A stretch of 64,000 nt of DNA from an uncultured Gammaproteobacteria bacterium (GCA_964394685.1 CAYMYO010000003.1:16218-80217); one strand, 5' to 3'; numbered from the stretch's first letter, positions 18,736 to 36,966 are shown. Numbers and translations: made by a program. Notes: generated by a model from the sequence alone, not told the origin.

Positions 18736-18769
18736 GCACAAAAGCACTAGATTGCTATACAATAGAAAT

Positions 18770-19755: not shown

Positions 19756-20967
19756 ATGACAAATTCGAACGTAATTCGACCATTTTCAAATATATTTCTC
19801 TCTCAATTTTTGTTTGCTCCCGAACAACTTCCATTTACCAATGATGAAATCATGGAGTTTGATCAAACGCTTTCAACATACGAACAGATATTTCTAAATC
19901 CCGATATAGAAAGAACGCTTATTAGTAAGAATGAACTATTAGCGTCATTCGCTATTTCAAAAGCAGAAGCATCACAACTTACAATGAAAGAAGCACAAGA
20001 CGTATACGCGCTTTTGGTAGAGAATTCACAGTATGATTTTATTGGGAAAAAATTGCGGGAGAAAAAGAAATTGACTCAAAAAGATCATGATCAGCTTGAG
20101 TTTTTCAATATTGCAAAAACATTTCGCATGTTTTCTCAAAAGAATATGGTCATAGAAGATATAACTCCGTCATTTATTCAAGAAATACACAGGCAGGTAA
20201 CCCAAGGCATGGATATATTCAAAAATCATCTTTCTGACTTTACTATCTATAAATCTGGTTTATGGCGGGACAATGATGATATTCGAGTGGGAGCGTATAT
20301 TCCTGCACATTTTGGCGATATACAAAATGGCGTGGATGAGCTTCTTTTGTATTTAAAAAAGAATCAAACACCAACCGGAATAGCTGTTTTTCACACTGGT
20401 CTTTATGGACTGCATCCATTTAATAATGGAAATAAACGGGTATGTCGCATACTCGAACACATGCTTTTTCGAAGTATTGGATTGAATGAAAAAAACTTAT
20501 ATAGCACATCGTATTACTACCACATAGAGAAAACTCGATATTACAAATATCTGTTGTTTTCATTGGAACGAAAAAATTTGAATCATTTCGTTTCATTTAT
20601 GTTGGAATCACTCGTTTTTTCTATTGTGTCTGTGTTAAAAACGAGTATTGAAGTAAAACGGAATGAATTTTTTCAAAAACAACAGATCGAAGGCGTCGGG
20701 AAGACTGTTTTAAAACCTCTTCTCAAACGAAAAGAATTGCAATTTAAGCATCTTGCAAAATACGCGAGTGGAAAAGTAGCACGGCAAACGTTAGTAACAA
20801 CGCTTCAAAGCGCCGTTTCACAAGGAATATTGATTCGTCGAGAATCTGGAAAAACAACATATTATCGTTTGAACCTCTCGCTTCCAGAAGAGCAAACCTT
20901 GGAACAATGGTTACAAACTATTCGAGAGCGGCTATCCTATATCCCAGATGATATAGCACTAGCATAA
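19756..20967 (+). CDS. Fic/DOC family protein
   Basis: Canonical Fic motif HPFNNGNKRVCR (HxFx[D/N]GNGRxxR). 403 aa with a C-terminal winged-helix-like extension. Confidence 0.75.
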   Translation: MTNSNVIRPFSNIFLSQFLFAPEQLPFTNDEIMEFDQTLSTYEQIFLNPDIERTLISKNELLASFAISKAEASQLTMKEAQDVYALLVENSQYDFIGKKLREKKKLTQKDHDQLEFFNIAKTFRMFSQKNMVIEDITPSFIQEIHRQVTQGMDIFKNHLSDFTIYKSGLWRDNDDIRVGAYIPAHFGDIQNGVDELLLYLKKNQTPTGIAVFHTGLYGLHPFNNGNKRVCRILEHMLFRSIGLNEKNLYSTSYYYHIEKTRYYKYLLFSLERKNLNHFVSFMLESLVFSIVSVLKTSIEVKRNEFFQKQQIEGVGKTVLKPLLKRKELQFKHLAKYASGKVARQTLVTTLQSAVSQGILIRRESGKTTYYRLNLSLPEEQTLEQWLQTIRERLSYIPDDIALA

Positions 20968-21045: not shown

Positions 21046-24000
21046 ATGAGCGAGAAGAAAGAAAATGTTTCAGAGATAGTTTCACGATGGATTGGTGCGA
21101 TTGCTGAGGCCGCTGATGCAAAAAAAAGCAAGATTACTCCAGACACGCTTGAAGCAAGAGTTCAAAAATTAGGAGAGACAAAACATACACCCGTTGAGAG
21201 CTTTGAAACTCGTATTCAAAGAGAGCAACGAGAGGCAAAGGAATTTACAGACGCGATTCAGTCGAATCAAAAAAATATTTCTTTAGTGATGGAACAATGG
21301 AAAGCATCAAACAAATACGAAGATCTATTGCCTTTAGATAAAGCAAAAAATAAATTAAAGACAGCATGGAGCTTGTCTAAAAATCAGCCGACGTGGTCAG
21401 GAATAAGCAGTCCAGAACAAATTGAGTATAGCGCCGCGGCCGCTGAATATCTATCAACAGTTGCGCTTTTACCACAAGAACTTGCAGAAGATCCGAATGT
21501 TTTTTTCCACGAAACCGCGAAATTTGCCGCATCCATGAGCAGTGATCCTTTGGCTCGGGAAGAAGAATTAAAAATACTTAACCAGGCAATTATTCATCAA
21601 GAAAAATTAAAAGGTTTTACTTTAAGTAAAGAAGACACCATTTACACCCTTCGCGGATTTGTTCTGTATGACAAAGAACTAGATGGTGACATTTTAGATC
21701 CGGTTAACCAAGTTGAAGCAAAGAATTTTCTTACGGAAATACAAGGGAGAATTGAAACGAGAAAAACAGGTGGCATTTCTGCTCAAGACGAGGCAATGTA
21801 TTTAAAACGACAAGGAGATACCATTGCCGCAAGTGATTATTACGTCATAGATAATATCCATCCGTCGCAGAAATATCAAATTAAGGATAAAAAAGTTCTA
21901 GAACCATTCGAAAGAAGAATTAATCGTCGAGTTGCAGAATTGACAGAAATAAATAAAGCACAGCGTCAAGCAGAATATCAATCACGCACATTTGAAGGAG
22001 CAGAATTTAATACCCCAGAGGAGTTAAAAAAAGGAATCGAAGCTCATTTTCTGAGATTTGAAGCTCCAACCGAGGAAATAAAAGAGAAAATGCTACGTCT
22101 GAGTCCAGAAGACCAGGAAAAATTTAAAAAAGAAATAATAAAAGGGATACGAAAAACTGTTGAGAGGTTGGAAAATAATCCCGAAAATTGGCGTATTGGC
22201 GGTATAGAGCCACTTCCAAGATCATTGATGTCTTGGATGCTTATTTTAGAAGATATGGGAGACCATAAATTATATGAAAAGATACATATAGAGACAGAAG
22301 CAAGATCCTGCCAGCATGTGATATATGAAACTTTAAAAAAGGGTGGTTCGCCAAGTGATATGAAAGATTTTCAAAAAGTTCAAGGTGATTTTGATAAAAT
22401 GGAGTTTCAAGAAGCAATAACTCATATTCCAGGTATGGCCAAGACACAAATGTTACTTGATGAACGATATGAAAGAGTTATTAAGGGCGAATTAAATCCA
22501 GTAGAAAAACAAAAAGTAAAAGATGAAATCCTAACAATATTACGAGACGACAAAACAATTTGTGATACAGAACACACAGGGATAACACCAGAAGCAGCAC
22601 TTGAGCTGGCTACCCGACACTATTTTGAACAAGGTAGGGATGGATTTAAGTATAGGGAATACATTCGTAAACATCATCTCCTTGGGACAACAAAAGATAA
22701 ACATGGAAATACAATTTGGGTTGTTGATCCGAATGCTCCGCTTAAATGGGATCCATATCGTTTATTATATTGTCCTGAGGCAATGCCAGCGTTTTTTAAA
22801 TTTGGTTCTAGTCAAGCTGGAGATGTTAGTAAGCTAACATTGCCAAATGGTAAGACAATTGAGGCAGTATTCGCTCAAGGAGTTGGAGCAGATTTTTATA
22901 AAAGTCTACTGGATCACGGATTTGATTTAAAAGTTACTGACTATGTTTCTCGGAGAAGAGATTATGAACTAGAAGCATGGATTTCAGAACAATTAGATAC
23001 GAAACAGGAACGCGGAGGAAGTAGTCAAGTGATTTGGGAATTAGGGTCGTTAAAAAGAGATGAACGAGGAGAAGATTCCATAGAATGGAATGCACTTCAA
23101 AGAGAAATAATGACTAATGATCCAACATTAGGAGAGCTTCGCTCTTTTCAAAGACAAGAAATCCGTTTGAGTTATAATATCAAATTTGCAGATGAGTTTG
23201 GTGTGAATGTATGGTCAGCATATTCAGAAAATGAAAAAAATTATCTTCAAAACGTTCAGACTTTGCGCACTAAAGCGTCAAATCAAGGTAGAACAGATAT
23301 TGTCCAGGAGCTTGATGCATTAAAGGATAGATATACAGCTACTCTTGCCAGAGCACGAGAAATTAATGATAAGTTTAAGAAAGACGTTTGTGAGAAAAAC
23401 GGTATAAAACTAGAAGAATACGAGTTCGTCTATGGAGATTTTTTTCCGTCGTTAGCTAAATTTGACGAAAGTAAAATTCCATGGATGAGAGTAGGAAGAC
23501 TTCAGGAAAACAAAAGAGGTAACTATAGAGACCATATAAACGCACTTACCCCAATGCAACAGGTGGCTGACTGCGCCATATATCCATCAGAAGAGAATAT
23601 TTTGAAAGTAGATCATAAAGCTATGTGTGGATATACAACGCTAACAAACGCACAAAAACATTTGATGTACCCCGTTTTGCAAGCATATATAGATGTTCAA
23701 AGAGGGAAAGGACCATTTGGGTCTGAAGTGACAAGTCTTTTGGAAGTAGGGAAAAGTAAAGTTGCAAAAGCATATGATCAAAAATCCAAGACTGATTTGG
23801 ATATATATAAGATTGTTCGTCAGCTTGTTGCCAAGGGAGCTTTATCTCGGGATGTAGCATATAAGATTAGAGGAGGATTTGCCGGTCGTGTTAGAGATAA
23901 AATACTTGAATACGCTGACCCTGCGAGTTTGGTTATTTTGCTTGGAGCTATAGTTCAGGAAGAAGCGAAAAAAACACAAAAGGATTTAGAAAAAGGTTAA
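21046..24000 (+). CDS. large hypothetical protein (984 aa), Glu/Lys-rich, predicted largely helical
   Basis: Long uninterrupted ORF with no recognisable catalytic motif. Lies between the cassette array and the VirB6-like/pilin genes. Confidence 0.4.
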   Translation: MSEKKENVSEIVSRWIGAIAEAADAKKSKITPDTLEARVQKLGETKHTPVESFETRIQREQREAKEFTDAIQSNQKNISLVMEQWKASNKYEDLLPLDKAKNKLKTAWSLSKNQPTWSGISSPEQIEYSAAAAEYLSTVALLPQELAEDPNVFFHETAKFAASMSSDPLAREEELKILNQAIIHQEKLKGFTLSKEDTIYTLRGFVLYDKELDGDILDPVNQVEAKNFLTEIQGRIETRKTGGISAQDEAMYLKRQGDTIAASDYYVIDNIHPSQKYQIKDKKVLEPFERRINRRVAELTEINKAQRQAEYQSRTFEGAEFNTPEELKKGIEAHFLRFEAPTEEIKEKMLRLSPEDQEKFKKEIIKGIRKTVERLENNPENWRIGGIEPLPRSLMSWMLILEDMGDHKLYEKIHIETEARSCQHVIYETLKKGGSPSDMKDFQKVQGDFDKMEFQEAITHIPGMAKTQMLLDERYERVIKGELNPVEKQKVKDEILTILRDDKTICDTEHTGITPEAALELATRHYFEQGRDGFKYREYIRKHHLLGTTKDKHGNTIWVVDPNAPLKWDPYRLLYCPEAMPAFFKFGSSQAGDVSKLTLPNGKTIEAVFAQGVGADFYKSLLDHGFDLKVTDYVSRRRDYELEAWISEQLDTKQERGGSSQVIWELGSLKRDERGEDSIEWNALQREIMTNDPTLGELRSFQRQEIRLSYNIKFADEFGVNVWSAYSENEKNYLQNVQTLRTKASNQGRTDIVQELDALKDRYTATLARAREINDKFKKDVCEKNGIKLEEYEFVYGDFFPSLAKFDESKIPWMRVGRLQENKRGNYRDHINALTPMQQVADCAIYPSEENILKVDHKAMCGYTTLTNAQKHLMYPVLQAYIDVQRGKGPFGSEVTSLLEVGKSKVAKAYDQKSKTDLDIYKIVRQLVAKGALSRDVAYKIRGGFAGRVRDKILEYADPASLVILLGAIVQEEAKKTQKDLEKG

Positions 24001-24021: not shown

Positions 24022-25401
24022 TTATTTTCCTGCCTCTGGTTGTTTATTTTTATCCGCATTTGTCCATTCTTTTCCTCTCATGAGGCCTTCCATCTGTCTT
24101 TTGCCCATATAGTATTGAATGCCCATTTGTGTTGCGGTGCCGACAATACCCATTGCTCCTCCACCCATTGACACCATTGGTTTTACTTTCAGCGCGTCTT
24201 TGAGAGATTTCACAATTGATGGTATAGATAAAGAGAGACCTAGACCAATAAGCGCTGCTATTCCATTACCACCCATGCCAAGAAGAGGAGGTGTCCATAC
24301 CTGGGTTGTGCTATTGACTAAAATAACACTGATCATTAAAAGAATTGCGGTGATGGGGAAAACAATAATGTTTGAAAAAAGATTTTTTATCCAAGATTCA
24401 AACGATTTAGAACCGGGAATTGCCTCTAAAAGCAACTGAAGCGGTGATGTTAGAAGTCCAATGATGATTTGAACATATGCATTGATAAGCATAAAAAAAA
24501 TTCGAAGTGCGGCAAATAAATAGGCAATAGCAAGAAAGACTATTAATAAAATACTAGCTATTGCTCCACCTAAAAGATAACCATATGCGTTTCCTTCGTT
24601 CATTCCCAAGAAACTTAATAATTCACCAAAACCAGCATATCCTCCAAATAACCCTTTCCACACAGCTCCAAACCCACTTGTTGTATATTGACTTAACACA
24701 TCGGTTTTAAATATACCGGGAGAAGCAGAATTGAGAAGTTGGATAATAATAACGAGAAATACATACATCAAATCGATCATGAGGCCGACGATTGCGTAGG
24801 AGAAGGTGATTAATAAAAGAGCGATAACGATGCGGGGGAGGGCGTTTTGGACGGAGACGACGGTTTTTGGATCGATTTTTTTCCGAAACATCACCATAAA
24901 TCCGATGACGATCATGACAATGGCAAGCAGGAAATACGCCATATTGCGGAACACTTTCCATATGGGAAGAAGAGCGGATAAGCCACTGAACCCCACTCCT
25001 TGTGCGTACGCGGATTTTGGAATAAATCCAAGTGTTTGCCCCATGTCTTGAACAAATGCATAGGTTGACGCCGGAGGATTGAGATACATGGCAGTGATAT
25101 ATGAGGATAAATTATAGATTGCGCTCTGTGCGAGCATTTGTTTAGCAATAGCAGAATCCATAGATTTAACAGTTATGCCCGGAACGGCACCCAAAATTTT
25201 TCGTATAAGTTCTACCTCAGAACCTGAACCTACATTCGCCACATGTCCAAGAGAATTTACTCCTCCGCTATATATGTCCTCATAGCTTTCTGGAAACCCC
25301 TGATCGGGCCAAAAGCTTGGTGCTTCTGCATAGACAGGAGTAACACGTGGTAGTGCAAAAGAAATAACAAGCGCGAGAAGCAAAATGACTATTTTCTTCA
25401 T
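24022..25401 (-). CDS. polytopic membrane protein, VirB6/TrbL-like (putative T4SS channel component)
   Basis: N-terminal signal peptide (MKKIVILLLALVISFALP), about 130-aa extracytoplasmic segment, then at least 6 TM helices and a Gly/Met-rich tail. Topology and size fit TrbL/VirB6. The assignment is by architecture only. Confidence 0.4.
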   Translation of the reverse strand: MKKIVILLLALVISFALPRVTPVYAEAPSFWPDQGFPESYEDIYSGGVNSLGHVANVGSGSEVELIRKILGAVPGITVKSMDSAIAKQMLAQSAIYNLSSYITAMYLNPPASTYAFVQDMGQTLGFIPKSAYAQGVGFSGLSALLPIWKVFRNMAYFLLAIVMIVIGFMVMFRKKIDPKTVVSVQNALPRIVIALLLITFSYAIVGLMIDLMYVFLVIIIQLLNSASPGIFKTDVLSQYTTSGFGAVWKGLFGGYAGFGELLSFLGMNEGNAYGYLLGGAIASILLIVFLAIAYLFAALRIFFMLINAYVQIIIGLLTSPLQLLLEAIPGSKSFESWIKNLFSNIIVFPITAILLMISVILVNSTTQVWTPPLLGMGGNGIAALIGLGLSLSIPSIVKSLKDALKVKPMVSMGGGAMGIVGTATQMGIQYYMGKRQMEGLMRGKEWTNADKNKQPEAGK

Positions 25402-25522: not shown

Positions 25523-26761
25523 ATGTTCATCAAAAGAACGATTTTTCATGAAGTTCAAAAACATCTTAATAGTCAGGAAATAACCCTTATTGTTGGGCCT
25601 CGTCAGGCTGGGAAAACGACTCTCATGGAAATGCTTCGCGACGACCTAGAAAAGCAAGGTAAAAAAACATTATTTCTTAATTTAGATTTTGAATCTGATC
25701 GGCCGTTTTTCGAATCTCAAGATCGATTAATTCAGCGGATTGTTTATGCAATCGGAAACGATCGCGGATATATATTTATTGATGAAATTCAACGGAAAGA
25801 AAATGCAGGATTATTTTTGAAGGGTCTCTACGACATGAAATTACCGTATAAATTTATTGTGTCCGGATCCGGAAGCATCGAACTCAAGGAAAAAATTCAT
25901 GAATCTCTTTTTGGGAGAAAACGGATATTTGAACTTACAACATTGAGCTTTGAAGAATTTATTGGATATAAGACGAAAGATTCTGATTTTTCATCGTTTT
26001 TCACATTATATAAAGAGAAAGGAATACAATATTTGGAGGAATATCTAAATTTCGGTGGGTATCCAAAAGTAGTTCTTTCGCCAACGATTGCAGAAAAACG
26101 TGCGGTTATTGCTGATATTTATCAAAGCTTTTTAGAAAAAGATATTGCCATTCTTCTTGGTATTCAAAAAACGGAAAGTTTTACTCAACTCGTGCGTCTT
26201 CTTGCTTCTCAAGTGGGGAAGCTGGTTAATGTAACGGAATTATCAAATACGTTGGGTATGTCCCAACAGACGATCAAAGACTATCTTTGGTATTTAGAAA
26301 AAACATATTGTGTTCATAAGGTAACGCCCTATTTTAAAAACGTGCGCAAAGAAATTACGAAAGCGCCTTTGTACTATTTCACTGATTTAGGGCTAAAAAA
26401 TTATGCCGCAAATACATTTGGTATCGCCACAACATCTCGGGACGGATTTTTATTTGAAAATTTTGTGTATAATGTGTTGGAAAAAAATGAAAAACTTACT
26501 TCAACAACAATTCATTTTTGGAGAACACGTGACGGCGCTGAAGTGGATTTTGTTGTAAACATCGGACAAGAGCAAATTCCTGTCGAAGTAAAATACTCAC
26601 GGTTGAAATCATTGGAAATTACCCGTTCATTCCGTTCGTTTTTGAGTAAATATAACCCACAAATTGGTTATATTGTTCATTTAGGTGATTCATTTGAAGC
26701 AACTATTGAAAAAACGACAGTGTCTTGTGTTCCGTTTTTTAATATTCCAACATTTAGTTAA
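25523..26761 (+). CDS. AAA-family ATPase with DUF4143-type C-terminal domain
   Basis: Walker A IVGPRQAGKTTLMEM and Walker B YIFIDEIQ. Typical AAA_14/DUF4143 architecture of about 410 aa. Confidence 0.6.
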   Translation: MFIKRTIFHEVQKHLNSQEITLIVGPRQAGKTTLMEMLRDDLEKQGKKTLFLNLDFESDRPFFESQDRLIQRIVYAIGNDRGYIFIDEIQRKENAGLFLKGLYDMKLPYKFIVSGSGSIELKEKIHESLFGRKRIFELTTLSFEEFIGYKTKDSDFSSFFTLYKEKGIQYLEEYLNFGGYPKVVLSPTIAEKRAVIADIYQSFLEKDIAILLGIQKTESFTQLVRLLASQVGKLVNVTELSNTLGMSQQTIKDYLWYLEKTYCVHKVTPYFKNVRKEITKAPLYYFTDLGLKNYAANTFGIATTSRDGFLFENFVYNVLEKNEKLTSTTIHFWRTRDGAEVDFVVNIGQEQIPVEVKYSRLKSLEITRSFRSFLSKYNPQIGYIVHLGDSFEATIEKTTVSCVPFFNIPTFS

Positions 26762-26816
26762 TCTATTAAATTTGGATACCGAAGGTTGTGATGTTAACGC
26801 CGGAATAGGAAGATAA

Positions 26817-27206
26817 TCAAGGAGTAGGTATTTCAATGCCGAATGTTGTGACGGTAACTCCTGTGAACTTTTCAATAAGAAGGAGAATGAGGTAACTACT
26901 GACGAGAACCAATAGTCCTGCAAACGCGCCGGTGAGCGTTCCTTTTGCTTTTTCAAGCTTTTTCTGATCTCCTCCTGAAAAAAGAAAAGAAAATCCGCCA
27001 ACCAGTAACATAACGAAAAGAACCACTCCGGAAAACATCACAATGGCCTTAATGATATTAGTAATAAGCATTGTCAGAGAGCCAATGGTTGCTACATCAG
27101 CAACTGCATCAGTACCAGATTTCTGTAATGCTCCCCAGGTTGGAGCCTGTGCAAGTAATGACATTTTTTTAATATGGCCTTGGAAGATTAATTCCTTGCG
27201 AACCAA
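26817..27206 (-). CDS. T4SS pilin (VirB2/TrbC-like) paralog 6
   Basis: Two TM helices flanking a conserved GGFSFLFSGGD...KLEKAKGTLTGAFAGLLVL loop. A probable start at an internal Met (about 27164) would remove the overlap with the upstream paralog. Confidence 0.55.
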   Translation of the reverse strand: MVRKELIFQGHIKKMSLLAQAPTWGALQKSGTDAVADVATIGSLTMLITNIIKAIVMFSGVVLFVMLLVGGFSFLFSGGDQKKLEKAKGTLTGAFAGLLVLVSSYLILLLIEKFTGVTVTTFGIEIPTP

Positions 27207-27498
27207 TGACGTTGATACCTAGGAAATTCTGAACCAATGCCATGACTGCCCATGCGGCGCCGACGATAATAAGACCAACAATAGCATGCGTTATCTTGTT
27301 TCTTGCTGTTTCCATGTGCGTTTTATCTCCACCAGAGGTGATCCACTGGATGCCTCCAAGAATAAGATATAAAAACGCCATGAGTGCAGCGAGTATGAGA
27401 AGCGTGCCGACGATAGCGCTAATAAGCATTCCAACATCAGTAATTTTTACACCCGGTGGTTGTGCGACCGTTAAATCAGCTGCAAATATTTTAAACAT
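27169..27498 (-). CDS. T4SS pilin (VirB2/TrbC-like) paralog 5
   Basis: LYLILGGIQWITSGGDKTHMETARNKITHAIVGLIIVGAAWA conserved core shared with neighbouring paralogs. 109 aa. Confidence 0.6.
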   Translation of the reverse strand: MFKIFAADLTVAQPPGVKITDVGMLISAIVGTLLILAALMAFLYLILGGIQWITSGGDKTHMETARNKITHAIVGLIIVGAAWAVMALVQNFLGINVIGSQGINLPRPY

Positions 27499-27547
27499 AC
27501 GTCACCTCCTCATGGTTACTACTTTTTATATTATACGGTACTTTTTA

Positions 27548-27907
27548 CTATTGAGCAATCGTTCCGCCAAAAGACGGAATTCTAAGAGCCTTCACATTAA
27601 GTCCAAAAAATTGTCCGACAAGAGCAAAAATAGCGTAGGCCGCTGCCACAATAACAAGCCCAACAAGCGCATTGGTAATTTTATCTTTTGCCGTTTCGAG
27701 TTTTGATTTGTCTCCGGATGATGTTATCCACGATAGACCTCCAGTAAGGAGATAGAGAAAAGTGAGAAGAAATGCAAAAAGAAAGAATAATCCGCCGATA
27801 TTTGATATAAGCATGCCGATAATCGTTGCACCTTGTTCTTTTGGTCCGGAGCCAAGAATTGGAGGAAGGACAGGGTTAGTTAGATCAGCGAGTAATTTTT
27901 GTTCCAT
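27548..27907 (-). CDS. T4SS pilin (VirB2/TrbC-like) paralog 4
   Basis: LYLLTGGLSWITSSGDKSKLETAKDKITNALVGLVIVAAAYA core. 119 aa. Confidence 0.6.
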   Translation of the reverse strand: MEQKLLADLTNPVLPPILGSGPKEQGATIIGMLISNIGGLFFLFAFLLTFLYLLTGGLSWITSSGDKSKLETAKDKITNALVGLVIVAAAYAIFALVGQFFGLNVKALRIPSFGGTIAQ

Positions 27908-27909
27908 AG

Positions 27910-28356
27910 TTATTTAAATTTAATTGTATGAATGACAGAGTCAGGCATTAAAATATTTTCCCACCCAAAAAATTCACCTGCTAAGGCAAGAACCGCCCAA
28001 CCGGCCACAACAATGACAAGTCCCACAAATGCATTGGTGAGTTTATCCCGTGCTTGTGTGAGTTTTGTTTTATCTCCTCCAGCGGTAATCCAGGAGATGC
28101 CTCCGGTGATAAATGTTATAAAAAACCAAAATGCTGCCACAACGGTCATGAGTCCAATCACAGCTGATAATGCGCCAGTGAGTTTCCCCATTGCTGTTAA
28201 AGGATTATTTAGCCCAGCTGCGGTTGGATTGCCGAATGGCCCCAATCCTTCAATGTTGCCCAATGGTGTTCCTGTTATTTGTGGCATAGCATTATTTTGG
28301 CCCGTAAATAACGGGACTAAGCATAAACATCGGATTTCCAAAGAGTATGTAGCCAA
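27910..28356 (-). CDS. T4SS pilin (VirB2/TrbC-like) paralog 3
   Basis: FITGGISWITAGGDKTKLTQARDKLTNAFVGLVIVVAGWA core. Probable start at the internal Met near 28287, which removes the overlap with paralog 2. Confidence 0.55.
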   Translation of the reverse strand: MATYSLEIRCLCLVPLFTGQNNAMPQITGTPLGNIEGLGPFGNPTAAGLNNPLTAMGKLTGALSAVIGLMTVVAAFWFFITFITGGISWITAGGDKTKLTQARDKLTNAFVGLVIVVAGWAVLALAGEFFGWENILMPDSVIHTIKFK

Positions 28357-28648
28357 ATATGGCTGTCAGGACAAATGATCCGGCGATGATGGCAAGTCCC
28401 AGAAGTGTTTGCCATATTCTACTCCATGCGCTTGTTAGTTTTTTTGCATCTCCTGCAGCGGTCATATATTCAAAACCAGCAATGATGATATTTACGAGTG
28501 CGTACATACCGGCCACAACAAAAATAAGCCGCAGGATATTTGAAAAAAAGGCAGTAAGCCCTCCACCCTCTACACCACCATAGAGGTTCAATGGATTCTT
28601 AATTTCCCCGACAATAGAATCAGCCGCAAAAATTTTTTCTAGTATCAT
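28292..28648 (-). CDS. T4SS pilin (VirB2/TrbC-like) paralog 2
   Basis: NIIIAGFEYMTAAGDAKKLTSAWSRIWQTLLGLAIIAGSFV core. 118 aa. Confidence 0.55.
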   Translation of the reverse strand: MILEKIFAADSIVGEIKNPLNLYGGVEGGGLTAFFSNILRLIFVVAGMYALVNIIIAGFEYMTAAGDAKKLTSAWSRIWQTLLGLAIIAGSFVLTAIFGYILFGNPMFMLSPVIYGPK

Positions 28649-28995
28649 AAAAAAGTCGGTTTGAGAATGTCAATACCAGTAATAATTTCAATAATTTGAA
28701 TGATCCAATACGCTGCAATAATCAATATTAGTCCGGTGAGTGCGCTGGTAATAGTGTTTTTCCCTTTTTCCTTGGCTTTTGCATCTCCTCCTGCTGATAC
28801 TATAAAGCTAAATCCGCCTAAAATCAATAAAACAAGGCATATGACCCCGGCAATAGTCAGCGCATTTTTAAGAAGTATGTTAACAAGAGTACTAATAGAG
28901 GTGATGGATGTTGACGGAGCAAGATCTTTTAAGTCCATATAAAAAGTGTACGAAAAACAAGTAGCAAATACAAGGCTGAGTTTGTATAATAGCAC
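28645..28995 (-). CDS. T4SS pilin (VirB2/TrbC-like) paralog 1
   Basis: LLILGGFSFIVSAGGDAKAKEKGKNTITSALTGLILIIAAYW core. First gene of the six-gene array. Divergent from the ECF sigma gene. Confidence 0.55.
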   Translation of the reverse strand: MLLYKLSLVFATCFSYTFYMDLKDLAPSTSITSISTLVNILLKNALTIAGVICLVLLILGGFSFIVSAGGDAKAKEKGKNTITSALTGLILIIAAYWIIQIIEIITGIDILKPTFL

Positions 28996-28996
28996 T

Positions 28997-29509
28997 ATGT
29001 TTCTTCGTGATAAACAGACAGCCGCAAAATTTTACCAAACATATAGACCAAAACTGTTGGCTTTTGTGCGGTCTAAAATTACCAATCCTCATGAAGCAGA
29101 AGACGTTGTGCAGGATACTTTATTTGCGTTTCTTGAGGCAATCCGTGATTTTCATGGAAACTGTCGGATATCTACATACCTTTTTTCCATTTGCAGACAT
29201 AAAGTAATAGATTATTATAGGAAGAAAAAAATAAAACAGATTGTATTTTCTCATGCTTCGGAAATAGAAGACGTATTATCACCGCTTTTGAGTCCGGAAG
29301 AAACATTAGACGCAGTTTTACTGAAAGAAAAGCTTCATAAAACACTTCAAAAATTGTTGCCTCAATATACGTATATTCTTCAAGCGCGATATATTCTTAA
29401 TATGTCTGTCGCTGATATCGCAAAAAAACTGGCTACCACGCTCAAAAGCGCAGAAATGACCTTGTTTCGGGCACGAAAAGCATTTATACAAACGTATGAA
29501 AAAGAATAA
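28997..29509 (+). CDS. ECF-type RNA polymerase sigma-70 family factor
   Basis: Region 2 (YRPKLLAFVRSKI...EAEDVVQDTLFAFLEAIRDF) and region 4 HTH (LQARYILNMSVADIAKKLATTLKSAEMTLFRARK). Start taken at the second Met to avoid a divergent overlap. The ORF track starts at 28946. Confidence 0.7.
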   Translation: MFLRDKQTAAKFYQTYRPKLLAFVRSKITNPHEAEDVVQDTLFAFLEAIRDFHGNCRISTYLFSICRHKVIDYYRKKKIKQIVFSHASEIEDVLSPLLSPEETLDAVLLKEKLHKTLQKLLPQYTYILQARYILNMSVADIAKKLATTLKSAEMTLFRARKAFIQTYEKE

Positions 29510-29726
29510 TAAGCAAGCGTTTTTGAACAGGTGGCAGGAGACGACTGAAATTCCTGTGCAAACCATTGGACCCTTTACTCCGTATTACAAAGAAGTGACA
29601 AAGCGATTAAAAACAATGCCATTTCCATTATTAATTGCAGTATCCATTATAATCGTGGGATTGCTGGTATACTTGCTTGGGTCTTCTGTAACCAGACTCG
29701 TGTCCTTATTACAACGAGGGTTTTAA
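29496..29726 (+). CDS. small single-TM protein, putative anti-sigma factor
   Basis: Overlaps the sigma stop by 14 nt. Single TM (FPLLIAVSIIIVGLLVYLLG). The assignment is positional only. Confidence 0.3.
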   Translation: MKKNNKQAFLNRWQETTEIPVQTIGPFTPYYKEVTKRLKTMPFPLLIAVSIIIVGLLVYLLGSSVTRLVSLLQRGF

Positions 29727-29761
29727 GCTCCTCATACGACTAATTTATACTACCCTTTGTC

Positions 29762-30409
29762 ATGCTGAATTTGTTTCAGCATCTATTTATTATGTCAGAT
29801 CAACTAGTGCTCAGTTTTTATACGTTTGGTCGATCAATAATCGGTATTTTGACACGGCCGTATGAAACATACCGTAAGATTATTAATCACGGTTCATTGT
29901 GGGAATTCGTTCCGCTGACGATCCTTATTGCAAGCTATTTGGGTATTGCATCGCTTGTAAAAACTGCTGCGTTCCGTCCATACATTCTTACTAAGCAATT
30001 TGTTGTGTTGGGAAGCGCAGTGGGCGCAACATATATATTAGTTGTTGTGTTGTTATGGACAGTTGGAAAAATTGTTGGAGGGAAGGGGAAATTAAAAACA
30101 ATCGCTTTGGGATGGGCATATACGCTTATTCCGACGACAACATGGTTTTTGGCAACATCTTTTTTGTATATGCTTCTTCCTCCTCCAAGAACAACTCGTC
30201 CGCTGGGAATTCTTTTTAGCGCATCATTTCTTCTTTTTTCGTCTGTGCTTTTCTTCTGGAAAATTATTTTGTCGTACTTGACTCTACGCTTTAGTATGAA
30301 GCTCGACTTGCTTCGCATCAGTATTGTTTTTTGCATCGTTATCCCGATTGTTGCACTATACAGCATTGGAATGTACCGGTTAGGAATATTTAAAATTCCA
30401 TTCGTATGA
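29762..30409 (+). CDS. polytopic membrane protein (Yip1-like, uncertain)
   Basis: Five predicted TM helices in 215 aa. No catalytic motif. Confidence 0.3.
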   Translation: MLNLFQHLFIMSDQLVLSFYTFGRSIIGILTRPYETYRKIINHGSLWEFVPLTILIASYLGIASLVKTAAFRPYILTKQFVVLGSAVGATYILVVVLLWTVGKIVGGKGKLKTIALGWAYTLIPTTTWFLATSFLYMLLPPPRTTRPLGILFSASFLLFSSVLFFWKIILSYLTLRFSMKLDLLRISIVFCIVIPIVALYSIGMYRLGIFKIPFV

Positions 30410-31356
30410 AATTACACACTGAGGGTATGGTTAAAAAAATAGTTTTAGTAAAACCCCGGGGGTTATGTGCCGGAGTGGAGCGGGCTTTAAGAATTTTGGA
30501 TTTAGTGGTGAAAAAAAGCAAAGGACCAGTGTATTGCCGACACCAGATTGTACACAATAAAAAAGTCGTAGAAGAATTTATTAGAAAAGGCGTAGTTTTT
30601 GTGGAAGATTTAAACCAGGTACCCAATGGTTCGGTGGTGGTTTTTAGCGCTCACGGCAGTAGCCCGAAGTTTTTTAAATTAGCCCAAAGGAAAAATTTAA
30701 CAGTAATTGACAGTGTTTGCCCTCTAGTAACTAAGGTCCATATGGAGGCAAAAAGTTATACAAAAAGAGGCTACTTTGTTGTTTATTTGGGCCATAAAAA
30801 TCATCCCGAAGCGATCGGAGTCTTAGGGGAAACGGAAGGAAATTCAGTTTTAATCAACAATTTAGAAGAGGCCAAAAAGTTACGTTTAACGAAGAAAGCG
30901 GTTTTATTAACGCAAACAACTTTAAGTTTGGATGAAACCAAAGAAATTATTGACTATTTAAAAAAGCGCTGGCCGGACTTAGAGTTTCCACCCGGAAAAG
31001 ATATTTGTTTTTCCACAACCAACCGGCAGCTGGCGGTAAAAGAGTTAGCCAAAAAAGCAGACTTAATCTTGGTCGTGGGTTCAAAGGAAAGTTCAAACTC
31101 AAATCGGTTAAGAGAAATGGCGGAAAAATCAGGAATCTCAGCCTACCTAATTGACGGGCCGGAGGATTTACACGATGAATGGTTTGAGAATAAAAAAAAG
31201 GTTGGGATTACAGCCGGAGCGTCAGTGCCAGATAAATTTGTTCAACAAGTAATTCAGGCGGTTCAGAAAAGATACGGCGGAGTAGTTGAAGAATTGGAGA
31301 TTTTTCCAGAAAATGTCAAATTTCTTAACTTACCCAAAGAATTAGAAATGTTATGA
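30406..31356 (+). CDS. ispH: 4-hydroxy-3-methylbut-2-enyl diphosphate reductase
   Basis: N-terminal KPRGLCAGVERAL (IspH/LytB PRGFCAGV motif) and conserved Cys. 316 aa. Confidence 0.8.
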   Translation: MKLHTEGMVKKIVLVKPRGLCAGVERALRILDLVVKKSKGPVYCRHQIVHNKKVVEEFIRKGVVFVEDLNQVPNGSVVVFSAHGSSPKFFKLAQRKNLTVIDSVCPLVTKVHMEAKSYTKRGYFVVYLGHKNHPEAIGVLGETEGNSVLINNLEEAKKLRLTKKAVLLTQTTLSLDETKEIIDYLKKRWPDLEFPPGKDICFSTTNRQLAVKELAKKADLILVVGSKESSNSNRLREMAEKSGISAYLIDGPEDLHDEWFENKKKVGITAGASVPDKFVQQVIQAVQKRYGGVVEELEIFPENVKFLNLPKELEML

Positions 31357-32354
31357 AAAAAATAGCAATTTTAGGTTCAACAGGAGTAATTGGTTCTAAA
31401 GCTCTGGAAGTAGTTCGGGATTATCCTAAAGAGTTTAAAATTGTTAGTCTGGCTTGCGGCCATGAGTCAGAAAAATTTAAAGAGCAAATTAAGGAATTCA
31501 AGCCGGAGATCGCGACAGTTGGAGAAGAGGATTTGGTGAAAGCCGTATCTCATCCAGAGATTGATTTAGTAATCGTGGCAGTGGTGGGAACGGCCGGAAT
31601 TAAAGCGACGCTAGCAGCGATTAAACAGAAAAAAAATATTGGGTTGGCAACAAAAGAAGTATTGGTGGTAGCCGGAGAAGAGGTGATGAAGGAGGCAAGA
31701 AAAAATGAGGTAGAAATAATTCCAATTGACAGCGAACACAGTGCAATTTTCCAGAGCCTAAAATCCGGAGAAAAAAGAGAAATAAAAAATATTTATTTAA
31801 CGATAGGGCAGGGCAAAATCAGTCAAATGAACAGAGAAGAGTTGGAAAAAGTGACGCCGGAAATGGTGTTAAATCGGAAAACGTGGACGATGGGACAAAA
31901 AATCAGCGTGGATAGCGCCACGTGTATTAATAAAGCGTTTGAAATTATTGAAGCCAGGTGGTTGTTTGGAGTTCGGCCGGAGCAAATTCAAGTGGTGATC
32001 CACCCAGAATATCTATGTCATTCGATGGTGGAATTTGTGGACGGTTCAGTGATAGCGGAGTTGGGCGTACCGGACATGAAGCGATATGTATCTTACGCGA
32101 TGTTTTATCCGCAAAGACGGGAAGTTAAAAACATTCCCCAAATAAATTTAGCTGAGAAAAGTTTATCTTTTAAGGCAGTCGACTTGGAAAAATTTCCAGG
32201 GTTGCAGTTAGGGTATTTGGTTTTGGAAAAAGGGGGTAGGGCGGCGGAAATTTTATACCAGACAGACGAGGCAGCCGTAGCTGAGTTTTTAAAAGGAGAA
32301 ATTAAGTTCACCCAAATAATCCCTATGATTGAAATGGAGATGAAAAAACTATGA
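31353..32354 (+). CDS. dxr: 1-deoxy-D-xylulose 5-phosphate reductoisomerase
   Basis: KKIAILGSTGVIGSKAL NADPH-binding N-terminus. Conserved IPIDSEHSAIFQ. Short for Dxr at 333 aa. Conserved IDSEHSAIFQ segment is present. Confidence 0.75.
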   Translation: MKKIAILGSTGVIGSKALEVVRDYPKEFKIVSLACGHESEKFKEQIKEFKPEIATVGEEDLVKAVSHPEIDLVIVAVVGTAGIKATLAAIKQKKNIGLATKEVLVVAGEEVMKEARKNEVEIIPIDSEHSAIFQSLKSGEKREIKNIYLTIGQGKISQMNREELEKVTPEMVLNRKTWTMGQKISVDSATCINKAFEIIEARWLFGVRPEQIQVVIHPEYLCHSMVEFVDGSVIAELGVPDMKRYVSYAMFYPQRREVKNIPQINLAEKSLSFKAVDLEKFPGLQLGYLVLEKGGRAAEILYQTDEAAVAEFLKGEIKFTQIIPMIEMEMKKL

Positions 32355-33016
32355 TTTCTGCTATTATCACTTGCGCCGGCAACAGTTCCCGATTCGGAAA
32401 AGAAAAGTTGTTTAAATTAATTAAAGGCGAGCCGGTTTTTATCCGAACAGTAAAACAGTTTGTTCAAGTTAAAGAAATAGGGGAAGTGGTAGTGGTGGTG
32501 AGGAAAGATACCAGAAAAAGATTTGAACGATGGCTGCAGAAATTCAAGCTCACTCCCAAATTGGTTGAGGGCGGAGAGGAGCGGTATATTTCTGCCTATA
32601 AAGGGGTGCAGGTCAGCCGGGGACGTTACGTTTTAATTCATGACGGCGCCAGGCCTTTGGTTTCCGCAAAATTAATTAAGAAGGTGATTAAAGCGGTTAA
32701 GCAGTATCCGGCAGTCATGACGGCGTTGGAAGCAACGACCTGCGTAAAATTAATTAATCCGAAAAAAATGGAAGTGGAACAATGTTTGGAGAGACAGAAA
32801 AGCTGGCTGGGCCAGACTCCGCACGGTTTTAAAAAAGAGATTATTTTGCGGGCGTACGAAAAAGCGATGAAAGGGGAAATAAGCGGAATGGACGATTGTG
32901 AATTAGTCAGAAAAACCGGAGTGAAAGTAAGGGTGGTTCCGGGAGAATGGACCAACAAAAAAATCACTTTGCCGTCTGATTTAGACATTATTAAAAACTG
33001 GAGTAAATATGTTTAG
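32351..33016 (+). CDS. ispD: 2-C-methyl-D-erythritol 4-phosphate cytidylyltransferase
   Basis: AIITCAGNSSRFG (IspD AxGxGxRxG-type motif). 221 aa. Confidence 0.8.
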   Translation: MISAIITCAGNSSRFGKEKLFKLIKGEPVFIRTVKQFVQVKEIGEVVVVVRKDTRKRFERWLQKFKLTPKLVEGGEERYISAYKGVQVSRGRYVLIHDGARPLVSAKLIKKVIKAVKQYPAVMTALEATTCVKLINPKKMEVEQCLERQKSWLGQTPHGFKKEIILRAYEKAMKGEISGMDDCELVRKTGVKVRVVPGEWTNKKITLPSDLDIIKNWSKYV

Positions 33017-33479
33017 AATCGGTTTAGGTCAGGATAGCCATAGATTAAAAGAAGGTGGTGAGTTAATTCTCGGAGGGGTCCAAATAACAGAAGAATGTTC
33101 TTTGGAGGCGGATTCAGACGGGGACGTGATTATTCATAGTTTATGTAATGCCTTATCAACAGCCATTGGCGGAGGGTCGTTGGATACTTGGGCGGGGGAG
33201 ATGTTTAGAAACGGAATTACGGACAGCAAAGAGTATTTAAGAAAAATTTTAGCCAAAGTTAAGGCCGGAAAATATACAATTAATAATGTGGCGATTATGG
33301 TCGAGGCAGCTAAGCCAAAACTGGAAAAATATCGGGAGGAAATACAAAAATCTTTAGCTAAGTTATTAGAGATTGAAGCGGAGAAGGTTGGGATGGCGTT
33401 TACCAGTGGTGATGGGTTAACTAGTTTTGGGCGGGGGGAAGGAATACAAGTAATCAGCACGGTGTTAATCGAAAAATGA
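33009..33479 (+). CDS. ispF: 2-C-methyl-D-erythritol 2,4-cyclodiphosphate synthase
   Basis: RIGLGQDSHRL (RIGxGxDxH) and SDGDVIIHSL (second IspF motif). 156 aa. Confidence 0.85.
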   Translation: MFRIGLGQDSHRLKEGGELILGGVQITEECSLEADSDGDVIIHSLCNALSTAIGGGSLDTWAGEMFRNGITDSKEYLRKILAKVKAGKYTINNVAIMVEAAKPKLEKYREEIQKSLAKLLEIEAEKVGMAFTSGDGLTSFGRGEGIQVISTVLIEK

Positions 33480-34258
33480 AGCTAAAACTGAGAGCGCCAG
33501 CTAAGATTAATTTAGGCTTAAGCATTTTGAAAAAGCTTGATAATGGCTTTCATAAAGTGAAAACAATTTATACAAAAATAAATATATTCGACTTGATAGA
33601 GCTGGAAGAAATAAAACAGGATTATATTGATTTTCTGGACAAAAATAACTTGGTTTACAGAGCGGCATGGCTGGTTAAAAACGAGTTAAAAATAAAACGG
33701 GGAGTAAAAATAAGCTTAACAAAAAAGATTCCGGCGGGGTCAGGCTTAGGTGGCGGCAGCAGTGATGCGGCCGCGGTTTTAAGAGGCTTAAATAAAATAT
33801 GGCAGCTGAATTTAAAAGAAAAAGAATTAATTAAGTTAGGAAAGAAATTGGGTAGTGACGTTGCTTATCAAATCGTTGGCGGTACAAAACTGGAAATTCA
33901 GGGAGGCAAAAAAGCAGGGAAATTTGTTGATTTAGGAAAATTAATTAAAGATTGGATTGTGGTTTGCGTACCGAATATTTTTATCAGCAGTCAGGAAGCC
34001 TATCAGAAAGTCGCGTATGATAAAGTCGGCAAAAACGAAGTTTTATGGCACAATGATTTTGAAATTTGGACTTTTAAGCAATATCCTGAAATAAAGAAAA
34101 TTAAAGAAATGATGATAAAAAATAGCGCCGAAAAAAGTTTGATGAGCGGTAAAGGTTCAGCAGTGTTTGGAATATTTAAAGATAAAAAAGAAGCGAAAAA
34201 AGTATATAATCAATTAAAATTAAAATACGAGCAAACATATTTAACTAAATCTTTATGA
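33476..34258 (+). CDS. ispE: 4-diphosphocytidyl-2-C-methyl-D-erythritol kinase
   Basis: APAKINLGLSI N-terminus and GHMP-kinase motif PAGSGLGGGSSDAAA. 260 aa. Confidence 0.75.
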   Translation: MKLKLRAPAKINLGLSILKKLDNGFHKVKTIYTKINIFDLIELEEIKQDYIDFLDKNNLVYRAAWLVKNELKIKRGVKISLTKKIPAGSGLGGGSSDAAAVLRGLNKIWQLNLKEKELIKLGKKLGSDVAYQIVGGTKLEIQGGKKAGKFVDLGKLIKDWIVVCVPNIFISSQEAYQKVAYDKVGKNEVLWHNDFEIWTFKQYPEIKKIKEMMIKNSAEKSLMSGKGSAVFGIFKDKKEAKKVYNQLKLKYEQTYLTKSL

Positions 34259-35310
34259 TTAAAAGAAGACTAACGAAAAAAATCAGAGTGGGGAAAATTG
34301 CTATCGGCGGAGATAGTCCGATTACAGTGCAGACAATGGTGAAAGTTGATGCCCATGACGTTAAAGCGGTGGTCAGGCAAATCCGGGAACAAGAAGAAGC
34401 CGGATGCGATATTACCCGGATGAATGTTTTGGATATGGAGAGTGTCAAGAATTTTTCCAAGATTAAAAAAGAAATTCATATCCCAATTGTGGCGGATATT
34501 CATTTGAATTATGAGTGGGCTTTGGAGGCGATCAAGCAAGGGGTGGATAAATTAAGAATCAATCCGGGGAATATAGGCGGAATTGATAAGGTTAAACAGG
34601 TGGTGAAACTGGCTAAAGAAAGAGGAGTGCCGATTCGGATCGGAGTTAATGCCGGTTCTTTGGAAAGGGATTTGCTCATAAAATATAGCCGGCCAACACC
34701 GGAAGCCTTAGTTGAGTCAGCCAGCCGGCACATTAAAATTTTGGAAGATTTAAACTTTGACCAGATTGTGGTGTCGTTAAAAGCGTCGGATGTAATTCAA
34801 ATGACACAGGCCTACAGATTATTCAGTCAAAAATACGATTACCCGGTCCATTTAGGGGTGACTGAAGCCGGACCGCCGAGCATTGGGACAATTGTTTCCA
34901 GTATGGGAATTGGGTCGTTATTATTGGAGGGAATCGGAGACACGATCAGAGTGTCTTTAAGCGGAGACAGCCGGGAAGAAATCAGGGTGGGAAAAGAGAT
35001 TTTAAAAAATTTAGGCTTAAAAAGCGGGCCGATTTTGGTTTCCTGCCCGACCTGCAGCCGGACTCAATATGACATGATTCCTTTAGTAGCCAAAGTGGAA
35101 AAATATTTACAAACAATTGAAAAACCGATTAAGGTGGCAGTGATGGGGTGTGTGGTGAACGGGCCGGGAGAAGCGAGAGAGGCGGATGTGGGAATTGCCG
35201 GAGGAAAAAATGCCGGAGTGATTTTTAGTAAAGGAAAGATTGTGAAGACGGTGAAAGAAAAAGAGATGTTTGAAGAATTAAGAAAGCATATTGAGCAGTT
35301 ACTTGCTTAG
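34255..35310 (+). CDS. ispG: 4-hydroxy-3-methylbut-2-enyl diphosphate synthase (GcpE)
   Basis: TVQTMVKVD N-terminal TIM-barrel region. CPTCSRT plus downstream MGCVVNGPGE Cys ligands of the 4Fe-4S domain. Confidence 0.85.
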   Translation: MIKRRLTKKIRVGKIAIGGDSPITVQTMVKVDAHDVKAVVRQIREQEEAGCDITRMNVLDMESVKNFSKIKKEIHIPIVADIHLNYEWALEAIKQGVDKLRINPGNIGGIDKVKQVVKLAKERGVPIRIGVNAGSLERDLLIKYSRPTPEALVESASRHIKILEDLNFDQIVVSLKASDVIQMTQAYRLFSQKYDYPVHLGVTEAGPPSIGTIVSSMGIGSLLLEGIGDTIRVSLSGDSREEIRVGKEILKNLGLKSGPILVSCPTCSRTQYDMIPLVAKVEKYLQTIEKPIKVAVMGCVVNGPGEAREADVGIAGGKNAGVIFSKGKIVKTVKEKEMFEELRKHIEQLLA

Positions 35311-36591: not shown

Positions 36592-36966
36592 CTATTTGAA
36601 TATATCTGTTATTCCCTTCATTCCAAAAACTATCCCTGTTATTTGTACGAGCCAGTACGCAACAAAGATGATCACAAACCCAGTTATTCCATTCGTAAGT
36701 CCCTTTTTCCCTTTTTCCATGGCTTTTGCATCGCCCGCGCTGGTCAGAAGCGTAAATCCGGCGCTTAAGATAACAATGAGTAATCCTATCCCGGCAAGAA
36801 CATAGATATAGTTTGTAATTCCTGTGACGACAGAAGCGGTGTTTGTGAATTTAAATCCTGTTGGATATGGGATTTGAATTGGTGATCCGCTTGGTCCAGG
36901 AAGAATAAGTTGTGCAAGTGTGTTCATATTATTTAAATCCCGGAACGCCGAGAATATCTGCGCCAA
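36592..36966 (-). CDS. T4SS pilin (VirB2/TrbC-like) paralog, dispersed copy
   Basis: ILSAGFTLLTSAGDAKAMEKGKKGLTNGITGFVIIFVAYW core matches the tandem array at 26.8-29.0 kb. Confidence 0.55.
   Translation of the reverse strand: MAQIFSAFRDLNNMNTLAQLILPGPSGSPIQIPYPTGFKFTNTASVVTGITNYIYVLAGIGLLIVILSAGFTLLTSAGDAKAMEKGKKGLTNGITGFVIIFVAYWLVQITGIVFGMKGITDIFK

Follow-up and report, generated by a model that had tools for sequence, protein, structure and literature searches.

Six conserved T4SS-pilin paralogs divergently arranged from an ECF-type sigma factor module in Gottesmanbacteria

Introduction

Tandem arrays of pilin-like genes linked to type IV secretion systems (T4SSs) have been described in Patescibacteria. 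A search of 3,035 Patescibacteria genomes with the PF04956 and PF18895 profiles identified VirB2-like pilins in 1,948 assemblies and 441 VirB2-like arrays of 2-11 genes, with a mean identity of 25% and abundant in Microgenomatia; this study also located the T4SS genes near dnaA and raised the idea that the paralogs serve antigenic or host-range variation (Quinonero-Coronel et al. 2025, PMC12102498). Southlakia epibionticum, the only genetically studied Patescibacterium, requires its T4SS and pilin array for epibiotic life, and its six "structurally conserved but sequence-divergent" pilins are all essential (Wang et al. 2023, PMC10633639; 2025 review, PMC12857230). These pilins, SEML1_0014-0019, are PF18895 proteins encoded beside a VirB6/TrbL-like gene (PMC10633639, supplementary table). 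The array is flanked by the VirB6-like gene and Hsp20 and has no adjacent sigma factor, the only sigmas listed for this genome being RpoD and an 'RpoS' encoded elsewhere (PMC10633639). Here we analyze a comparable six-gene array in a stretch of 64,000 nucleotides (nt), hereafter the window (GCA_964394685.1, CAYMYO010000003.1:16218-80217; positions are counted from its first letter), in which the pilin-like genes are transcribed divergently from a gene for an extracytoplasmic function (ECF)-type sigma factor.

Judging by the source names of its homologs, the window belongs to a Patescibacterium of the Gottesmanbacteria (Microgenomatia). The array itself is already published biology, being another example of the known Patescibacterial VirB2-like arrays, with which it shares PF18895 membership and tandem divergent paralogs (~25-35% identity). 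As in S. epibionticum, there are six pilins, a VirB6-like neighbor and a monoderm-type T4SS (VirB4, PrgI, TrsD) near dnaA. In contrast to S. epibionticum, which lacks it, the array in the window faces a module formed by the ECF sigma, a 76-amino-acid (aa) protein and a Yip1-domain protein. Compared with the published arrays, it also differs in its Gottesmanbacteria lineage, in the presence of a VirD4-like coupling protein and in a second pilin pair 8 kb away. What we add is modest: a fixed set of six orthogroups in Gottesmanbacteria, a predicted major subunit and promoter layout, and a candidate sigma regulon. We consider it likely that the six genes form the pilin module of a chromosomal, monoderm-type (MPF-FATA-like) Patescibacterial T4SS, and that the divergent sigma belongs to a separate module acting on a promoter-like motif ahead of isoprenoid genes.

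Results

The array encodes six T4SS-pilin paralogs

An open reading frame (ORF) listing of 24-40 kb revealed six consecutive longest ORFs on the minus strand (26817-28995). We refined their starts by reading the DNA and by comparison with gene calls on independent assemblies, which gave 118, 125, 119, 109 and 115 aa for p5 to p1, while the most likely start of the first gene, p6, is ATG 28938, giving 97 aa. The array thus occupies 26817-28938 on the minus strand and encodes proteins of 97-125 aa; the lengths of 109-148 aa given in the initial annotation were longest-ORF overestimates. The same artefact (28946 versus 28995) had made the 5' end of the array appear to overlap the sigma gene. This overlap vanishes because the conserved starts are ATG 28997 for the sigma and ATG 28938 for p6, which leaves a divergent intergenic region of 58 nt.

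In the order of transcription, p6 (28645-28938; the longest ORF, from GTG 28995, would be 116 aa) scores 33.3 bits against the Pfam family PF18895 (T4SS_pilin). Its orthologs begin with M-E-R-V-F-A about 6 nt after the hexamer TACACT, and no Shine-Dalgarno sequence was found upstream of its start. The p5 gene (28292-28648; 24.5 bits) has an ATG that overlaps the p6 stop codon (ATGA), and is followed by p4 (27910-28287; 25.2 bits), p3 (27548-27907; 28.0 bits), p2 (27169-27498; 35.5 bits) and p1 (26817-27164; 31.0 bits). All six proteins match PF18895 with E-values of 1e-8 to 3e-5. Four of them exceed its gathering score of 26.6 bits, while p4 and p5 fall marginally under it. A family hidden Markov model (HMM), built on the window and iterated on relatives, recovers every array protein at E<=1e-24 (p5, 2.8e-25).

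Alignment of the six proteins, which are 22-40% identical to p1, exposed a common core, GG.xWITSGGDKxKLxxAxxKITNAxVGLxIV. In each protein, a basic loop (K+R 3-4 versus D+E 2-3) separates two hydrophobic segments, and the AlphaFold2 (AF2) model of p2 is a helical hairpin (residues 19-54 and 59-93) with a core predicted local distance difference test score (pLDDT) of ~90. Accordingly, the earlier description of the genes as T4SS-pilin paralogs with two transmembrane (TM) segments and a conserved core stands, and the core reflects real sequence similarity rather than hydrophobicity alone.

Most paralogs (p1, p2, p3, p5 and p6, with their orthologs) also carry M-x(1-5)-[ILV]-[FYL]-A-[QAE] at the extreme N-terminus, as seen at 27498-27470 and 28648-28620. 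The ..[ILV][FYL]A[QAE] portion sits at residues 4-9, and most paralogs have no hydrophobic leader. A few orthologs (for example p4 of the related locus L013) possess a full signal peptide that ends at the aligned ..VSA|QQ site, and the signal peptide of a 348-aa pilin-domain protein of the window, described below, likewise ends at the site aligned with the short motif. This motif may be a processing site or the leftover of a leader.

The six genes are a fixed set in Gottesmanbacteria

To place the array in its lineage we used the sigma factor as an anchor. One search returned 431 sigma homologs at E<=1e-5, and 434 genome stretches encode a relative; from these we kept 80 genomic loci with a sigma ortholog (44-86% identical), and scanned them in six frames with the pilin HMM. 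Nearly every locus with sufficient upstream DNA has six opposite-strand pilin genes directly upstream of the sigma. Exactly six, in the same order, were found in 61/80 loci, and most of the remaining loci have too little upstream DNA on short contigs or contain extra DNA between the array and the sigma.

Genes at the same position are 51-75% identical between genomes, p2 having the highest mean (75%, with orthologs 70-94% identical), whereas identity between different positions is 26-41%, apart from p2 and p3 (52%). In addition, position-specific N-terminal tails are kept, such as NPVLPPxLG in p3 and GGxGLGPFG in p4. Since identity within positions exceeds identity between positions and the positions have their own tails, the six genes appear to be an ancient, fixed set of individually maintained paralogs. 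Such a set argues for distinct structural roles over recent expansion or antigenic variation, both of which had been proposed for these "expanded and diversifying" genes and neither of which agrees with six conserved positional orthogroups. The Gottesmanbacteria, a class distant from S. epibionticum, have kept six pilins, each conserved in its own right, as a fixed set together with a VirB6-like gene.

The pilin genes have predicted sigma-70-type promoters

Upstream of p6, on the minus strand, we identified a putative array promoter (28973-28945) composed of the -35 element TTGTAT (28973-28968), a 17-nt spacer and the -10 element TACACT (28950-28945), placed 6 nt from ATG 28938. In relatives, the arrangement is TTGACA-17/18-TACACT-6-ATG, with TACACT in 42/59 loci, TTGACA in 29/59 and the 6-nt distance in 36/59. 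As there is no Shine-Dalgarno sequence and only 6 nt separate the -10 element from the ATG, the p6 transcript is predicted to be leaderless.

A second promoter-like site precedes p2 (27558-27505, minus strand), with TTGCTC at 27558-27553, a 17-nt spacer, TATAAT at 27535-27530 and the ribosome-binding site GGAGG at 27509-27505. This site (TTGCxC-17-TATAAT, often with a second TTGACA upstream) is kept in 47/61 loci, and the ~20-nt leader with AAGGAGG provides a Shine-Dalgarno sequence in 50/61. Because p2 has its own predicted promoter and the only strong ribosome-binding site of the array, and is the most conserved paralog, it is probably the major subunit. Together with the fixed set, p2 and the predicted promoters are concrete targets for expression, proteomics and structural work.

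The elements found ahead of the pilin genes, namely TTGACA-17-TACACT for the array, TGnTACACT for the second pilin operon and TTGCxC-17-TATAAT for p2, are of the sigma-70 type. TACACT was considered as a pilin-specific -10 element and rejected: dnaN of the window is also preceded by TTGACA-17-TACACT. As dnaN has the same hexamers, the pilin promoters look like housekeeping ones. From this layout we infer two sigma-70-type transcription units, a leaderless p6-p3 unit and a p2-p1 unit driven by the internal promoter. A generic promoter scan of 26500-30000 returned 10 sites versus 10.0 in shuffled sequences, and is uninformative alone.

The array is accompanied by a VirB6-like gene, a second pilin operon and T4SS core genes

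A gene for a 459-aa polytopic membrane protein lies at 24022-25401 on the minus strand. A homolog occupies the same site in 54/57 loci, and in relatives it directly follows the pilin array. Neither this protein in Pfam and the Protein Data Bank (PDB), nor its 27 orthologs when compared with PF04610 and relatives, gave a sequence match. Its AlphaFold model (mean pLDDT 78.9) was compared with the PDB using Foldseek, and TrwI/VirB6 of plasmid R388 took ranks 1-6 and 8 (probability 0.75-1.0), the best matches having E 8e-3, probability 1.0 and TMt 0.41-0.45. We assign the protein as VirB6-like with moderate confidence. In the window, a gene for an AAA_14/DUF4143 ATPase (25523-26761, plus strand) is inserted between it and the array, an insertion seen at this place in none of 64 comparable loci.

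The second operon, at 36.6-38.0 kb on the minus strand, begins with the 348-aa protein mentioned above (36929-37975), which comprises a signal peptide, an extracellular domain and a C-terminal pilin module (PF18895, 28.8 bits over residues 275-336). It continues with a seventh small pilin paralog (36592-36966, 124 aa as an ORF, or 111 aa from the alternative ATG 36927; 36.5 bits), so that both of the proteins at this site, which had been singled out for comparison with the array, contain the PF18895 domain. The putative promoter, TGATACACT (37990-37982), is 6 nt ahead of GTG 37975 and is kept in relatives, where the pilin pair is likewise maintained 8.5-9.5 kb downstream of the sigma.

Core T4SS genes were annotated with Pfam and NCBIfam on the other side of the array. 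They encode an M23 peptidase (8903-10801), a VirB4 of the CD1110 family (10798-12642; 399 bits versus a cutoff of 325), a TrsD-like protein (12639-13274) and a PrgI-like protein (13278-14384), all on the minus strand, and a VirD4-like coupling protein on the plus strand (14447-16708). The pattern by which pilin arrays have been recognized in the literature is therefore present, with six pilins in tandem, two more nearby, and VirB4, PrgI, TrsD-like and VirD4-like genes in the same window. The dnaA and dnaN genes immediately adjoin the T4SS core genes (5280-16708), in agreement with the published origin-proximal placement of T4SSs in Patescibacteria.

The sigma factor heads a conserved module upstream of isoprenoid genes

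On the opposite side of the 58-nt region, the plus strand encodes a 170-aa ECF-type sigma factor (28997-29509) with only the Sigma70_r2 (PF04542) and Sigma70_r4_2 (PF08281) domains and neither region 3 nor region 1. It scores 90.9 bits against TIGR02937 (cutoff 42.9) and has no equivalog-level NCBIfam match, so that its identification as an ECF sigma holds at the superfamily level. A -10 element, TATAAT (28985-28990, plus strand), is positioned 6 nt ahead of its ATG; in relatives it reads TGnTATAGT and lies 6-10 nt before the ATG. No ECF-type motif (AAC...CGT) was found upstream of the sigma's own gene. The promoter of the sigma gene looks sigma-70-type, hence not autoregulated. Its -10 element is only 11 nt from the pilin -35 element, making the two promoters back-to-back and overlapping, and they would be expected to compete for RNA polymerase. 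This overlap is the only link between the sigma and the pilins that the sequence suggests.

The next gene (29496-29726, plus strand) overlaps the sigma stop codon and encodes a 76-aa single-TM protein, a candidate minimal anti-sigma. It follows the sigma in 77/77 eligible loci, nearly always with ~76 aa and usually overlapping or abutting the sigma stop. Its consensus, ..RWEEVTDLPPQTLGPLTP.YK..RLKVMPWP-TM-..LLQRGF, comprises a conserved cytoplasmic part of ~40 residues, a single TM segment and an end, ..LLQRGF, that does not vary. It matches no Pfam or NCBIfam family or anti-sigma domain, and has no Cys or His, thus no HxxxCxxC motif. The ORF noted initially in the anti-sigma position is therefore a real and strongly conserved gene with no match to an anti-sigma family, and its role as an anti-sigma is plausible by position only.

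The third gene of the module encodes a Yip1-domain membrane protein (29762-30409, plus strand; PF04893, 48.7 bits) and is present in 76/77 loci. Its true start is probably ATG 29792, which corresponds to the MSDQ start seen in the related locus L004. The probable Yip1 leader contains, at 29762-29782, an 8-bp hairpin, ATGCTGAA-tttgt-TTCAGCAT, with a T-rich run behind it; most relatives lack this hairpin.

The trio heads a long, tightly packed, co-directional string of isoprenoid genes that extends to uppS. In the window, this string consists of ispH, dxr, ispD, ispF, ispE and ispG, which form the methylerythritol phosphate (MEP) pathway, then idi and uppS. The mevalonate pathway (HMG-CoA reductase and synthase, thiolase, two GHMP kinases and diphosphomevalonate decarboxylase) occupies the same slot in almost all other Gottesmanbacteria loci, and only one of ~70 shares the MEP genes. 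A comparison of window positions 30406-35310 with 11334-17756 of locus L015 thus reveals that the two precursor pathways have been swapped in situ in the slot from Yip1 to idi/uppS. Additionally, a polyprenyl synthase gene lies between the pilin array and the sigma in ~10 loci.

A bipartite motif precedes the isoprenoid genes and not the pilin genes

Straight after the stop codon of the 76-aa gene, and in most relatives 8-12 nt ahead of the ATG of Yip1, we found a conserved bipartite motif, GGRTTT-N12-CGACTAAT. In the window it takes the form GGGTTT-N13-CGACTAAT (29718-29744, plus strand), and constitutes a candidate ECF-type promoter ahead of Yip1 and the isoprenoid string. A loose regular expression for this motif returned 48 matches on both strands of 1.4 Mb, of which 46-47 are at this site, and none precedes a pilin operon in the same 1.4 Mb. 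CGAC is the classical -10 element of SigX-type ECF promoters in Bacillus subtilis. Part of the motif coincides with the invariant codons that end the 76-aa gene (QRGF*), and these show a bias at synonymous sites: the overlapping Gly codon is preferentially GGG or GGA and never GGC. In ~20 loci, a GC-rich terminator hairpin followed by a T-run stands between the 76-aa stop and the motif. In those loci, transcription of the genes beyond the terminator must start from a promoter of their own.

The classical ECF promoter (GGAAC...CGTC), by comparison, was found neither in the 58-nt divergent region nor in 75 orthologous versions of it, where sigma-70-type elements occur instead. A GGGAAT...GTC look-alike in some divergent regions was rejected, its 11-nt spacer being too short. 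The proposed control of the pilins by an envelope signal through the ECF sigma is thus not borne out, since the pilin promoters are of the sigma-70 type and the only conserved non-sigma-70 motif precedes the Yip1 and isoprenoid genes. Our best guess, in which we place slightly less than even confidence, is that GGRTTT-N12-CGACTAAT is the target of the sigma, and that the sigma would serve the supply of isoprenoids and lipid carriers, a role typical of envelope regulation, and not the pilins. Reassigned to the isoprenoid/undecaprenyl operon, the sigma offers a testable hypothesis of regulation in organisms with very few regulators.

This module resembles ECF sigmas with a short single-pass anti-sigma (CnrH/CnrY type, class II anti-sigma domain) and the SigX and SigM envelope regulons of B. 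subtilis in having a sigma with regions 2 and 4 only. It also shares with them a sigma gene that overlaps, and would be co-transcribed with, that of a small, N-in, single-TM protein with ~40 cytoplasmic residues, a CGAC-type -10 candidate, and envelope-lipid (undecaprenyl/isoprenoid) gene neighbors. It differs from these systems in that the 76-aa protein has no anti-sigma family match, zinc motif or sensor domain, that the sigma's own promoter looks sigma-70-type, and that the -35 candidate, GGRTTT, lacks AAC. A literature search returned no paper linking ECF sigmas to Patescibacteria.

Discussion

A probable pilin module for a monoderm-type T4SS

We hypothesize that the array proteins insert in the membrane with both termini outside and the basic loop inside, and that the VirB4/VirB6 machinery would extract them to build a heteromeric pilus- or stalk-like conduit. 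In this model, p2 would make up the bulk of the conduit, the other paralogs would be minor or specialized subunits, and the 348-aa protein, with its extracellular domain on a pilin module, could be a surface or tip subunit. The sigma, the 76-aa protein and Yip1 form a separate conserved module, in which the sigma most likely acts on GGRTTT-N12-CGACTAAT and not on the pilin promoters.

Our best reading is that the array proteins work like VirB2, a function we prefer because of their partnership with VirB6 and VirB4; that they are VirB2 is unproven. They share with VirB2, TrbC and TraA of Gram-negative T4SSs (PF04956) a small two-helix hairpin, a basic loop, and VirB6 and VirB4 as partners. In contrast to those pilins, however, they have no detectable sequence match to them and most have no long cleavable leader; moreover, the Gram-negative systems have one major pilin, whereas here there are many paralogs and a monoderm cell.

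Several observations weigh against our interpretation. The initially suggested VirB2/T4SS-pilin identity was confirmed with PF18895 and not with PF04956 (TrbC/VirB2), which matched none of the eight pilin proteins of the window at E<=0.1. When the PDB was searched with a profile built from 65 aligned pilin sequences, only chance matches to designed helical proteins emerged, and no solved VirB2, TraA or TrbC pilin. Foldseek comparison of the p2 model with the PDB was non-significant (best E=3), a two-helix hairpin being not discriminating; the Aeropyrum pernix conjugation pilin 8dfu ranked fifth (probability 0.66, TMt 0.67) amid generic hairpins. The resemblance of the 459-aa protein to TrwI is weak (E 8e-3 to 0.75, TM-score 0.29-0.45). 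To our knowledge, no pilus has ever been observed in these organisms. As for the regulatory part, GGRTTT is not a classical ECF -35 element, as it lacks AAC, and in the terminator-bearing loci it coincides with the T-tract of the terminator. The tight, lineage-wide adjacency of sigma and array could also reflect co-regulation. Finally, all promoters, leaderless starts and the mechanism itself are predictions from sequence conservation.

Alternative interpretations

The array proteins could instead be membrane or channel components of the T4SS that do not form a fiber, like the small two-TM proteins of Gram-positive conjugation, and build at most a short stalk through the wall. We regard this as unlikely, while noting that T4SSs of the monoderm type are normally pilus-less and that no homology to solved pilins was detected. 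Also consistent with it is a weak, sub-threshold NCBIfam match of p2 (E 1.4e-5) to Mbov_0395, a 'pilin-like conjugal transfer protein' of Mycoplasma integrative and conjugative elements, which hints that the family could have monoderm relatives. However, there are seven to eight paralogs, one with a 270-aa extracellular domain and several with kept external tails, for which a surface-exposed assembly fits better, and the strong dedicated promoter and ribosome-binding site of p2 suggest a high-copy structural subunit.

A bolder version of our model appears improbable to us. It holds that the sigma, the 76-aa protein and Yip1 are a new, Gottesmanbacteria-specific ECF group in which a sensor-less 76-aa anti-sigma would couple the state of the membrane to the isoprenoid-uppS genes through GGRTTT-N12-CGACTAAT. 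The state in question might be, for example, the load of pilins and VirB6 or the demand for lipid carriers during assembly of the T4SS or pilus. The module may then modulate the pilins indirectly, by promoter competition, and the six paralogs would form an obligately heteromeric T4SS filament, which would differ from homopolymeric VirB2 pili.

Direct control of the array by the ECF sigma, which an envelope signal would release from the 76-aa anti-sigma, is a rather remote prospect. The 58-nt control region is shared by the sigma and the array, and almost every one of the 80 loci whose upstream DNA is long enough keeps their divergent layout. The block of the VirB6-like gene and six pilins facing the sigma, the 76-aa gene and Yip1 also persists though the flanking genes change. 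A precedent comes from Brucella, for which an ECF system influencing T4SS expression is described in PMC8315932. On the other hand, the pilin promoters carry sigma-70-type features, with a TTGACA -35 and an extended -10 (TGn), and dnaN is preceded by the same hexamers. The sigma-3 domain, which reads TGn, is absent from ECF sigmas. The intergenic region contains no AAC...CGT-type motif, and the CGAC motif is not in the pilin upstream regions. Nor is the adjacency itself constant, given the polyprenyl synthase gene that splits the sigma from the array in some loci, and sigma adjacency does not hold for Patescibacterial pilin arrays in general, because S. epibionticum has no sigma near its six pilins. 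Adjacency as a proof of co-regulation was accordingly set aside, being weakened by these insertions, by this sigma-less Saccharibacterial array and by the wider synteny of the region.

It is very unlikely that the six paralogs are interchangeable variants that take turns in expression or are under selection for antigenic or host-range variation, an idea put forward for the VirB2 copies of Bartonella and Anaplasma and raised for Patescibacteria (PMC12102498). The copies resemble those of Bartonella and Anaplasma in being tandem and divergent, and their identity is low (22-40%). However, the Bartonella and Anaplasma copies are thought to vary for immune evasion, whereas each position here is a lineage-wide orthogroup with a kept N-terminal tail. 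Furthermore, within one or two transcription units the genes overlap or are closely spaced, neither repeats nor signs of recombination were seen, and in S. epibionticum every one of the six pilins is essential on its own. The fixed set and the predicted major subunit argue for a heteromeric structural assembly over variable antigens.

That the proteins are unrelated small membrane proteins (holin-like or stress proteins, for example) sharing only hydrophobic composition can be given almost no weight: the hairpin fold is generic, but specific non-hydrophobic motifs are conserved (GGD.K...A...IT.A), Pfam matches exceed the threshold, linkage to the VirB6-like gene is kept, and S. epibionticum has members of this family within its essential T4SS cluster.

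Other features of the window

A 984-aa protein that matches no Pfam or NCBIfam family is encoded upstream of the VirB6-like gene, at 21046-24000 on the plus strand. A homolog is detectable in 4/53 loci, and a large unannotated ORF can occupy the same position (L015 2513-6247, 1244 aa). We take it to be a large, rapidly evolving protein neighboring the T4SS module.

The stretch from the T4SS core to the pilin module also encodes a '23S rRNA-intervening sequence protein' (17360-17746), a HEPN/nucleotidyltransferase pair (18632-19464) and a Fic-domain protein (19756-20967). A 20-nt stretch, gaggctgatttggtAGTGTA (plus strand), occurs twice, ahead of the Fic gene and ahead of the 984-aa gene; the copies, at 19672 and 21031 (minus strand), lie upstream of 19756 and 21046, respectively, and make it a repeated promoter-region segment. 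Finally, an ORF at 46287-47282 contains a LAGLIDADG_3 homing-endonuclease-like domain.

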